Under the pieces are notes generated by a model. That model saw nothing but the letters and a program-made list of their open reading frames with translations, had not been told where the DNA came from and made no database searches. A DNA stretch of 64,000 nucleotides from an uncultured Planctomycetota bacterium (GTDB lineage: Bacteria; Planctomycetota; PLA2; JAEUHO01). This document shows positions 26,422 to 28,581 of the stretch, piece by piece (positions within the stretch are counted from its first letter, which is position 1; every line of letters begins with the position of its first letter). The position numbers and the translations under genes were made by a program. The stretch is from the NCBI GenBank assembly GCA_963752285.1, contig CAVVXN010000005.1, forward strand, positions 1,440,001 to 1,504,000. The letters are read 5' to 3'.

Positions 26422-28581
26422 TCACGAGGTCGGCTGCGATCCGGCCCCCTCTCTCCTCACCCAGCGGTGTGGCCAGGGATCCAGAGCGTATTCCACGACC
26501 CGGGCGTCGTCGGCCGCGGCCAGGAGGTCGGCGAGGAGCTCGTCCACGGGCGGCCTCGACTCCGCGTCGATCCGGTGGCGGACGCGCTGCAGGCGGACCG
26601 CGCCGCGCGTCCGCGCGGGGCCGACGAGCTCGCGCCGCGCCTCCCCGACGTCGAGGAGCGGGTCGGCGTACGACGGCTCCAGGCCGTCCGGCCACCACGG
26701 GCCGGCGGCGGGGAAGCGCAGGAGGTCCAGGCGCGCGAGCCGGGCGGCGGCCTCCCCGCCGGGCACCGGCGAGAGCGCGACCTCCAGGCCGCGCTCGGGA
26801 CCCGCCCGGGCGAGGGCCCTCACCATCACGGCTTCGACCTCGTCGGCGAGGCGCGCCCGATCGTCGGCGGTGCCGGCGGGTACGAGCAACCGGACGGCGC
26901 GGTCGAGGCCCACCGGCTCGACGAGGTGGAGGGCGCCGTCCACGTCCACGAGGGGAACCGGACCGCGGCGCACCGCCCAGAGCGCGAGACCGGGTTCCTC
27001 GCCGGCGCGGACGAGGAGGTCGCGCCGGGCCGCCGCGACGTCCACGGCCAGACGGGCCAGACGCTCGACCTCCTCCCGGAACGCGGGCGCGCCCGCGGCC
27101 GCCGTCCGCAGCGCCGCGGCGACGAGGTTCACGGCGGTCGCCGTCGCCACCGTCACGTCGCCGTTCGCGAAGCGGAGCGGGTCCACGACCTCCGCCTCGC
27201 GGCGCCGGAGCCACCGGCCCCCGCGCGAGGGCTGGTCGCCCTCCTCGAGCGCGAGCCAGGGCTCCCCCGCCTCGGCGGCCGACGCGAGGGCCTCGCGCAG
27301 GAGCCCGCGCATCGCGGCGTCCCGGCGGCCGCGGCGCGGCAGGACGAGCGTCAGGGAGACCCCGCCGAGGCGGCCCCGCCGGCGAAGGAGCGCGGCCTCC
27401 CGCAGGATCGCGCGCGCGACGCGGAGCGCCTCGTCCGCGTACGCGCCGAAGGGCCGCCCCGGGGGGGCGGGGTCGGGGGGTTCGAGACCCCGGAGCCGCC
27501 CGGGGACCTCGGCCGAGAGCCCGATCTCGAGCTCCAGCCGGCCACCGCGCCCGGGGAACGAGGCGAGTGCCGGCGAGAGGAGGAGCTGGCGGACCTCCTG
27601 GACGAGCTCGTCGTCGGTGAGGTTCGAGAGGTGCGGAGCGAGGTGGACGTTCAGGTCCTCGAGCACGAGCGCGCGGGCGAGGAACGGGCGGTAGCGCTGG
27701 ACGATCTCCTCGAGCGACCGGAGCGCGCGCCGGGCGCCCGACGGCCGGTCCACGAGGTCGCCCTCGAGCGTCGCCTGGAGGAGCGCGCCGAACGGCAACG
27801 CGCTCGCCGCGACCGCGAGGGGCGCCCCCAGGTCGTACGCGTGGAGGTCGCCGAGGCGGTGCGCCTCCGCGGCGGGGCCGGGCAGGACCTCCTCGAGCAT
27901 CCACGCCTCGAGCACCTCCTCGCCGAGCGCGTGGGCGAGCGCCCCGGGGTCGGTCGCGCGCGCGCACTCGGGACCGCGCTGGAGCGCGGCCCGCACGCGG
28001 TCGAACGCCACCGCGGCGGACGCGCGGCTCCCGAGACGGCTCGTGCGGCCCCGGTCGAACATCTCCGAGTGCACGAGCGCGACGATCAGCTCGGGCGCGG
28101 CGCGGGCCACGCCCGCGTCCACGAGACGGGTCTCGACGCTCCGGGCGACGTCCTCGGCCTCCGTGCGGTCCAACCCGTCCGCCGCGACGAGCGCCTCCAC
28201 GAGACGCGCCTTCGAGAAGAGGGAGGCCTCGGGCTCGGCCTCTCCGCTCACCAGGGGCCGCGCGTGCCCCCGCGCGGCGTCGCGGGCGGCGCGCGCCGCG
28301 GCGCGGCGCTCCCGGTAGAGGATGTAGGCCTTCGCGGTCCGCGCGTGCCCGGTCTCGATCAGGACCTTCTCGACGGCGTCCTGCACGTCCTCGATCGTCG
28401 GGACCTCGCGTTCGATCGTGCGCTCCACGTGGGCGACCACGAGGCCGGCGAGCTCCTCGGCGAGGAATCGGTCCTCGCCCCCCACCGCGCGCGCCGCCCG
28501 GAAGATCGCGTCGGCGATCTTCTCCCGCCGAAAGGGGACGAGGCGGCCGTCGCGCTTCTTGATCTGACGAAGGCGCCTCAC
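26422..28581 (-). CDS. Double ATP-cone NrdD-like (class III RNR-like) protein lacking catalytic motifs
   Basis: IKKRDGRLVPF..EDVQDAVEKVLIETGH..AKAYILYR, second cone, AEAHRLGDLHAYDL, AVNL, GEAAARLARLD; only one Cys; no Zn ribbon or RxxGY; GTGA overlap with the nrdR stop. Confidence 0.8.
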   Translation of the reverse strand: MRRLRQIKKRDGRLVPFRREKIADAIFRAARAVGGEDRFLAEELAGLVVAHVERTIEREVPTIEDVQDAVEKVLIETGHARTAKAYILYRERRAAARAARDAARGHARPLVSGEAEPEASLFSKARLVEALVAADGLDRTEAEDVARSVETRLVDAGVARAAPELIVALVHSEMFDRGRTSRLGSRASAAVAFDRVRAALQRGPECARATDPGALAHALGEEVLEAWMLEEVLPGPAAEAHRLGDLHAYDLGAPLAVAASALPFGALLQATLEGDLVDRPSGARRALRSLEEIVQRYRPFLARALVLEDLNVHLAPHLSNLTDDELVQEVRQLLLSPALASFPGRGGRLELEIGLSAEVPGRLRGLEPPDPAPPGRPFGAYADEALRVARAILREAALLRRRGRLGGVSLTLVLPRRGRRDAAMRGLLREALASAAEAGEPWLALEEGDQPSRGGRWLRRREAEVVDPLRFANGDVTVATATAVNLVAAALRTAAAGAPAFREEVERLARLAVDVAAARRDLLVRAGEEPGLALWAVRRGPVPLVDVDGALHLVEPVGLDRAVRLLVPAGTADDRARLADEVEAVMVRALARAGPERGLEVALSPVPGGEAAARLARLDLLRFPAAGPWWPDGLEPSYADPLLDVGEARRELVGPARTRGAVRLQRVRHRIDAESRPPVDELLADLLAAADDARVVEYALDPWPHRWVRREGAGSQPTS

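Follow-up and report, generated by a model that had tools for sequence, protein, structure and literature searches.

In a 64,000-nucleotide (nt) stretch of the genome of an uncultured Planctomycetota bacterium (assembly GCA_963752285.1, contig CAVVXN010000005.1, positions 1,440,001 to 1,504,000; the window hereafter), the gene between nrdR and smc encodes a protein, here called X, which its sequence places beyond doubt as a homologue of NrdD, the class III ribonucleotide reductase (RNR), collinear with it from the ATP-cone to the barrel's final strand. Judged from its residues, X is shown to be incapable of thiyl-radical chemistry, and no activase is encoded in the genome. We propose that X is an nrdD descendant kept as a noncatalytic ATP/dATP sensor or scaffold in the control of deoxyribonucleoside triphosphate (dNTP) supply, with NrdR as its most likely partner, a reading to which we would give a probability of about 0.5.

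Results

X is an NrdD homologue without catalytic residues

BLASTP aligned X with a true NrdD from Planctomycetota (P0079) at 31% identity over 755 columns (E 3e-84). When profiles were compared with hhalign, the 53 X-like proteins matched 13 true NrdDs with a probability of 100 and an E value of 3e-96 over 699 columns, X positions 9-714 mapping to NrdD positions 3-734 of 828 and ending immediately ahead of the Zn ribbon. Among active enzymes, those nearest to X are NrdDs of ~810 amino acids (aa) from Planctomycetota and their relatives. General NrdD models did not reach their cut-offs on X: Pfam PF13597 scored 25.3 bits against a cut-off of 26.2 (26.1 bits when the cone was left out), and NCBIfam TIGR02487 scored 15.3 bits against 326.35. 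A search of PDB sequences with the family profile matched the cone and, at the barrel, gave weak hits only (a 9d3x domain with E 0.007 and T4 NrdD with E 0.0033), so the case for homology rests on the comparison with the Planctomycetota NrdDs. An earlier prediction made from the letters of this stretch (the original prediction) had described a 719-aa protein on an NrdD-like scaffold; that description is borne out, and the motifs it quoted are visible in X.

At its N terminus X carries an ATP-cone that passes the curated cut-off of PF03477 (84.5 bits against 25.8), and dead and true forms taken together conserve its residues K9, R10, D11, G12, R13, and F17 to 90% or more. Two such cones had been predicted. 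The first stands, while the second does not do so as a full cone, being degenerate or truncated: residues 106-201 scanned alone gave no Pfam match at E<=10. Against the first cone, hhalign gave this second domain a probability of 29% (E 6e-4), compared with 82.6% for its counterpart in true NrdD, and the KRDG hairpin must be missing from it because the alignment begins at cone position 12.

The catalytic motifs, invariant in true NrdD, are all lost in X and its relatives. The ENSNI or "NxN" substrate flap is absent from X, the HLHD triphosphate motif has become HAYD, the beta-A cysteine segment VYCSSHS reads AVAASAL, the finger loop SACCRLR reads SRGGRWLR, and YYTNS is lost. The CxxC...CxxC Zn ribbon and the RIVGY glycyl loop are also missing, the chain ending at DPWPHR. 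The roles of the NxN flap and the HxHD triphosphate motif are given in PMC11226230 and those of further motifs in PMC9669993 (what we take from papers cited by PMC number refers to the part of their text that was available). X has a single cysteine, C206, which is not conserved, and no column of the family alignment is a conserved cysteine, the best one reaching 14 of the 53 sequences. Likewise, none of the 53 aligned relatives carries the finger-loop cysteine and the glycyl domain. Thus, the features on which the original prediction had called X a catalytically dead class III homologue, namely a lone cysteine, none in the finger loop, and an end without Zn ribbon or glycyl loop, are all confirmed, and the loss of the flap can be added to them. 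The identification of E610 with the substrate-bridging Glu of the PAE loop was dropped: BLASTP pairs the two, whereas MAFFT and hhalign shift E610 by one column.

The best points of reference are the double-cysteine (SACCR) NrdDs, represented by P0079 and by solved relatives (8p23 from Prevotella copri, 9d3x, and 4coi/4u3e). X likewise has a cone at its N terminus, a degenerate second one, and a barrel collinear with theirs, and it shares with these enzymes the genomic slot directly behind nrdR. Unlike them, it has no NxN flap, beta-A cysteine, finger-loop cysteine pair, Zn ribbon, glycyl loop, or NrdG partner, and HxHD has changed to HxYD. That X descended directly from NrdD, through the deletion of nrdG and the loss of the flap, cysteines, Zn ribbon, and glycyl domain, we regard as nearly certain.

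The family is conserved throughout its order

Of 40 genomes of the order, 39 have an X-like gene, among them all 17 of high quality; the one in which it was missed is 75% complete. All 53 aligned relatives, which are 40-60% identical, are collinear to a C-terminal DPWPRR end, with 43 invariant and ~90 nearly invariant columns. In the ATP-cone, pairs of dead forms are on average 0.68 identical, pairs of true NrdDs 0.72, and mixed pairs 0.60; the corresponding values for the barrel are 0.48, 0.76, and 0.23. In 36 columns the dead family is conserved to at least 95%, whereas true NrdD has another residue or varies. Among them are R453, G454, and R456 of the former finger loop, D467-P468, the insertion G474-D475-V476, and R303, R345, G347, E352, P704, and R706. 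This set of family-specific conserved positions looks like a remodelled pocket and not like random decay.

For the five closest pairs, the ratio of nonsynonymous to synonymous substitution rates (dN/dS, by NG86) was 0.25-0.51 for the whole of X, 0.09-0.57 for its ATP-cone, and 0.26-0.50 for its barrel, compared with 0.11-0.21 for nrdR and 0.13-0.25 for the N terminus of smc; these ratios are rough, as dS is compressed by a third-position G+C content of ~0.95 and true NrdD pairs also gave 0.35-0.48, and they say only that X is below 1 and faster than its neighbours. The reading frame is intact, and the codon-position G+C of X (0.85/0.53/0.95) is similar to that of nrdR and smc, in agreement with what had been claimed. 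Presence in 39 of the 40 genomes, ratios below 1 in five of five pairs, and the shared C-terminal end also uphold the earlier view that this is not a decaying pseudogene. X appears to be a pseudoenzyme, its catalytic residues lost and its gene conserved across species under what these ratios suggest is purifying selection.

A class II enzyme is the only RNR of the genome

The genome that holds the window (4.64 Mb in 5 contigs, 89% complete) has no true NrdD elsewhere, as a whole-genome scan with PF13597 gave no match at E<=0.001. No NrdG was found in it with TIGR02491, no NrdG2 scored over the cut-off of TIGR02495, and no NrdB was found. A detached Zn-ribbon or glycyl domain was sought by tblastn across the genome, and none was found; the best glycyl-domain match (E 0.05) was rejected as a low-complexity stretch in an arbitrary frame. 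The sole RNR is a class II NrdJ (PF08471, PF02867, and TSCPD), which has no ATP-cone and lies on another contig than X. Only two ATP-cones are present in the whole genome, those of X and NrdR.

The wider sample agrees. True NrdD was over the cut-off in 0 of the 40 genomes of the order and NrdG2 (TIGR02495) in 0 of the 29 genomes of the window's family, all 29 of which have a PF02867 RNR. The absence of nrdG, predicted for the window, therefore extends to the whole genome, and the search that had been recommended for a separate radical domain or a true RNR brought up no detached domain and a class II enzyme. Taken jointly with the identity of X and its losses, it is all but assured that anaerobic ribonucleotide reduction has been given up in this lineage.

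Two NrdR-box-like palindromes, CCACGATCGGTTGTGG and CCACGAGATATAGTGG, stand before nrdJ (contig C3, 339771-339786 and 339802-339817). They are 31 bp apart from centre to centre, which corresponds to a 15-bp spacer, and lie ~180-230 bp upstream of the nrdJ ATG. Because this agrees with the usual NrdR-box spacer of 15-16 bp (PMC12051234), NrdR probably controls nrdJ, the sole working RNR here.

X occupies the nrdD slot of an ancestral gene cluster

In 13 of 15 family loci the gene directly upstream of the X-like gene is nrdR, and in 13 the gene directly downstream is smc; the exceptions are contig ends (L013 and L017 for nrdR; L013 and L016 for smc). The loci seen in this work all belong to genomes of uncultured organisms. 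The nrdR-X-smc order that the original prediction had asked to be traced among orthologues is thus found on both sides of the gene. The order is not confined to dead forms. At other loci of the Planctomycetota type (12 with true NrdD and 3 with glycyl-less NrdD), nrdR was directly upstream in 15 of 15. A further 20 loci with 10-kb flanks had nrdR in 19 cases and smc in 18, and the succession of nrdR, an NrdD-like gene, and smc was seen in 24 of 26 wider loci (L033-L052 and L143-L148). At one true-NrdD and one glycyl-less locus among these 20, both from single-contig genomes, smc lies ~2 kb downstream, and the gene between nrdD and smc is NrdG2 (182.7 and 148.8 bits).

The ancestral order in Planctomycetota is nrdR-nrdD-nrdG-smc, and X fills the nrdD slot. 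X is therefore the positional orthologue of nrdD; with no true NrdD in the window's genome or in any of the 40 genomes of the order, the word "paralogue" used in the original prediction has to be withdrawn. It also follows from this order that the links of X to nrdR and smc are inherited synteny and not a new association. What had been said of coupling to nrdR and a position upstream of smc accordingly stands as to the start-stop overlap and the synteny, and falls as to a newly formed link. The 4-nt overlap of nrdR and X, which recurs in family and sister-family loci (Table 1), differs from most true nrdD loci, where gaps of +5 to +30 nt separate the two genes.

As an observation in its own right, nrdR and smc are linked across Planctomycetota regardless of the genes that intervene, and the expression of SMC may be bound up with the NrdR unit.

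Dead NrdD-like genes recur in other lineages

Dead NrdD-like genes occupy the same slot in many other Planctomycetota families. In a sister family the proteins are 653-697 aa long, four single Planctomycetota lineages also have a dead form in the nrdD slot, and in six more families the dead proteins are reduced to 600-667 aa, each matching true NrdD with an hhalign probability of 100. A quick maximum-likelihood tree of 48 open reading frames (ORFs), from which L016 (a fragment of 404 aa) and L017 (lacking its N terminus) were left out, placed all 31 dead forms on one side of a branch with an SH-aLRT value of 100. A single origin of the dead forms is possible on this tree, and so is long-branch attraction, as the dead branches are long.

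With the family profile, 7629 of 1.84 billion representatives were found at E<=1e-3, and 710 of them reached E<=1e-30. The best 150 of the 7629 include 128 that are at least 550 aa long, and 116 of these 128 are without the CC finger-loop and glycyl motifs, a dead-form call made with simple patterns. One subgroup, of 750-770 aa and named Candidatus Hydrogenedentota in the source, has its finger loop deleted and no glycyl domain. On two metagenomic contigs of this group (L150 and L151), a true nrdD with a glycyl end is followed by nrdG and then by a dead NrdD of 751 aa, and no nrdR or smc was found within ~3 kb of the dead form. Here the dead form is a real paralogue of the adjoining true NrdD.

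Other combinations of retained and lost parts were also noted. In three families (f96, f55, and f35; L039-L041 and L043-L046), an NrdG2-like gene with an intact CX3CX2C lies directly downstream of the dead form at 7 of 7 loci; these dead forms have no finger-loop cysteine, Zn ribbon, or glycyl loop. In the glycyl-less NrdDs (L051 4995-7388, L023, L030, and L031; P0072, P0073, P0092, and P0122), the RIVGY loop is replaced by unrelated sequence, and the NxN flap, HxHD, beta-A cysteine, SACCR, ESPAES, YYTNS, and the CxxC...CxxC Zn ribbon are kept. The L051 protein adjoins an NrdG2 gene (148.8 bits), and on the gene tree the glycyl-less forms branch off at two points within the clade of true NrdDs. 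They may have a noncanonical radical site or may be recently inactivated. One protein of 794 aa (P0150) has the reverse loss: its Zn ribbon and a RIAGY glycyl-type loop are kept, and the beta-A cysteine and finger-loop cysteine pair are gone.

Features of the locus

The coordinates of X, its parts, and its immediate neighbours are collected in Table 1. The record holds a 719-aa protein identical to X (P0003). The GTG start of X and the stop of nrdR share their 4 nt as GTGA, and a Shine-Dalgarno-like run, GAAGGGG, lies just upstream. A scan of 26150-29550 for promoters and terminators found nothing, such a scan being low-powered in DNA of 73% G+C. The public sequencing runs listed for this stretch include no RNA run, and two wetland DNA runs hold a small share only.

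Table 1. Positions in the window of X, its domains and motifs, and the adjoining genes
Feature	Position	Strand	Remarks
smc, 1189 aa	22746..26315	-	Pfam SMC_N E 2.1e-68, and SMC_hinge
Spacer between X and smc, 106 nt	26316..26421	-	Simple consensus scan: no terminator-like or promoter-like site
X, dead NrdD-like coding sequence (P0001)	26422..28581	-	719 aa and stop
NrdD alpha/beta barrel remnant, residues 206-719	26425..27966	-	Stops at the point where true NrdD goes over into its Zn ribbon; language-model features nearest NrdD clusters (0.96)
C-terminal DPWPHR	26464..26481	-	P702, W703, P704, and R706 conserved; aligns with ISPEF at the barrel end
Former finger loop, residues 451-460 (PSRGGRWLRR)	27202..27231	-	SACC of true NrdD replaced by family-invariant R453, G454, and R456
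H247-A-Y-D250, remnant of the HxHD triphosphate-binding motif	27832..27843	-	H247 and D250 family-invariant
Second, degenerate ATP-cone-like helical domain, residues ~112-205	27967..28248	-	Without the nucleotide-binding hairpin; hhalign
ATP-cone, residues 6-94	28300..28566	-	KRDG...F...KI motif kept; Pfam PF03477 E 7.5e-24, whole-genome scan agrees
GTGA overlap of nrdR stop and X start	28578..28581	-	Translational coupling; alike at 11/13 family loci and 6/6 sister-family loci
nrdR, 163 aa, Zn ribbon and ATP-cone	28578..29069	-	TIGR00244 194.6 bits; Pfam

Divergent from nrdR, across an intergenic region of ~400 bp, is a gene for a calcineurin-like metallophosphoesterase (PF12850, E 9.4e-18) at 29472..30230 on the plus strand, after which comes yidC. 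The C-terminal tails of NrdR past the ATP-cone are variable and rich in Lys and Arg, with lengths of ~15-70 residues (28578-28640 on the minus strand of the window; loci L004-L016 and L033-L038). A protein of 1041 aa from a short contig (P0062) joins an X-like N terminus, through garbled sequence, to an SMC N terminus; it has the look of a gene call that was frameshifted or merged, and not of a real fusion.

Discussion

How a dead reductase could be useful is suggested by the part of it that is best kept. This is the ATP-cone, and we therefore infer that the retained function depends on nucleotides. Binding of ATP or dATP to the cone of NrdD alters both the dynamics of the enzyme and its oligomeric state (PMC11226230). 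In NrdR, the switch among dodecamer, octamer, and tetramer that decides DNA binding is built from paired ATP-cones loaded with ATP or with dATP and ATP (PMC9110341). Because NrdR oligomers are built by cone pairing and X is translated together with NrdR, X is well placed to act on this switch. In the mechanism that we favour, X would no longer make dNTPs, its cone would bind ATP or dATP, and X would join or modulate the oligomeric switch of NrdR, which would in turn control the cone-less class II nrdJ; alternatively, X might lend its cone to NrdJ. X resembles NrdR in having a well-conserved ATP-cone, which would sense the same ATP/dATP signal, and in belonging to the same translationally coupled unit. 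It differs in that it carries a dead enzyme body of 500 residues and has no DNA-binding domain that Pfam recognises, the Zn ribbon PF22811 included, which NrdR (P0002) has.

Several results weigh against a sensor or scaffold that works with NrdR. As adjacency to nrdR is inherited, it is weak evidence of a partnership, and in Hydrogenedentota no nrdR lies within ~3 kb of the dead form. In the 450 bp upstream of nrdR, a hand-made criterion picked out no NrdR-box-like site in the window, nor in 5 of the 12 other family loci tested. The barrel is poorly conserved within the dead family by comparison with true enzymes, and in the same pairs dN is 0.22-0.35 for X and 0.05-0.115 for nrdR and the smc N terminus; the dN/dS ratios themselves are rough. 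X must also be dispensable in some lineages, since the barrel has shrunk in other families and the gene is gone from one genome (G033, locus L138), where nrdR (2001-2657) overlaps smc (2654-6427) by 4 nt with no NrdD-like gene between them.

Most of these results could also be read as the slow decay of a relic without any function of its own, whose frame survives between nrdR and smc, within a single unit of transcription and translation, in DNA of high G+C and of which only the cone is transiently constrained. On this account, the dN of X, 2.5 to 4 times that of its neighbours, the shortened barrels of six other families, and the complete deletion in G033 would be signs of this decay, and an open frame would mean little in a window of ~73% G+C in which long spurious ORFs are common and some of 551-1830 aa overlap the X locus. 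A decaying barrel, though, should not give dN/dS below 1 in all five pairs, nor should 53 of 53 sequences remain in frame to the DPWPRR end with 43 invariant and ~90 nearly invariant columns at 40-60% identity, some of them specific to the family. The gene would also hardly be expected in 39 of 40 genomes of the order, or dead forms in 116 of the 128 best representatives of at least 550 aa. We consider the relic unlikely. Two other assignments would keep X functional and separate it from NrdR. X could be a regulator of NrdJ activity in trans, supplying an ATP/dATP-responsive module to an enzyme that consists of PF08471, PF02867, and TSCPD without a cone, in a genome where the only cones are those of X and NrdR. 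Many class II RNRs are said to have no activity regulation, however, X and nrdJ are unlinked and on different contigs, and the dead form of Hydrogenedentota sits with a class III pair and not with nrdJ. Regulation of an RNR by a cone on a partner subunit is known for NrdB (PMC5794259), and its structure (PDB 5olk) was matched in our search; on balance we think a role on NrdJ quite improbable.

The other assignment would have X link dNTP status to chromosome organisation by acting on or with SMC. The conserved gene order, broken only at contig ends, speaks for it, as do an X-to-smc spacer of 81-178 nt in 11 of 12 measurable family loci (28-57 nt in the sister family) and the lack of a terminator-like site between the two genes. 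On the other hand, smc is tied to nrdR throughout the phylum whatever lies between, be it a true nrdD with nrdG or nothing at all, and the persistence of the nrdR-smc adjacency in G033 weakens any particular link of X to SMC. There is, moreover, no smc near the Hydrogenedentota dead form, and because dead forms adjoin RNR genes in this second phylum too, a role in dNTP supply is favoured over one in chromosome condensation; the SMC link is very unlikely. As for the idea that X is still a reductase or another enzyme, drawing on a radical source in trans, the HxHD motif retains H247 and D250 and conservation extends to the barrel, but there is no conserved cysteine, NxN flap, Zn ribbon, or glycyl loop, no NrdG in the family, and no detached glycyl domain in the genome. 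As a thiyl radical is required for all known RNR chemistry (PMC9531940), its chances seem close to nil.

The sensor or scaffold in partnership with NrdR thus remains our preferred reading of X. It could be extended, though we hold the extension to be unlikely, to dead NrdDs as a widespread and so far unrecognised class of nucleotide-sensing subunits of RNR regulators. In Planctomycetota, the cone would pair with NrdR in a two-protein repressor/anti-repressor that sets the expression of nrdJ and possibly of smc; in Hydrogenedentota, the dead form would sit beside the live NrdD and NrdG. The barrel might then read, at its remodelled substrate or specificity sites, a second nucleotide signal to which NrdR alone is blind.

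Partial precedents exist for a dead or displaced RNR module. The closest published analogy is the inactive class Ia R1 homologue of cytomegaloviruses, UL45 of human cytomegalovirus and M45 of murine cytomegalovirus, in which, as in X, a dead catalytic subunit (here the RNR large subunit of beta-herpesviruses) is kept for noncatalytic ends (PMC5469499). UL45 and M45 are viral proteins of class Ia R1 descent whose target is host signalling, whereas X is bacterial, derives from class III, and is linked to genes of RNR regulation. The ATP-cone of class I NrdB shows that a cone can regulate an RNR from another polypeptide; NrdB with its cone is an active subunit, whereas X has no catalytic role. 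No account of an NrdD family that is Cys-less and glycyl-less turned up in the literature within our scope, which included the available text of PMC9531940, PMC9669993, and PMC11528403 and ended short of subscription journals and supplements.

In source records, X-like proteins go by the names "ATP cone domain-containing protein" and "hypothetical protein", and some are mislabelled "anaerobic ribonucleoside-triphosphate reductase". Metabolic reconstructions built on the last of these names would wrongly credit such organisms with anaerobic dNTP synthesis. RNR control sets the dNTP pools and hence the fidelity of replication, and NrdR is regarded as the master regulator of this control in bacteria. 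The series of genes seen here, from full NrdD through glycyl-less NrdD with NrdG, dead form with NrdG, and dead form without NrdG to outright deletion, lays out, as if dissected by nature, the steps by which a radical enzyme goes out of use. That a large and conserved family of dead class III reductases keeps a functional-looking ATP/dATP sensor, and remains joined to nrdR in Planctomycetota or to a live nrdD-nrdG pair in Hydrogenedentota, suggests an undescribed layer of nucleotide sensing.

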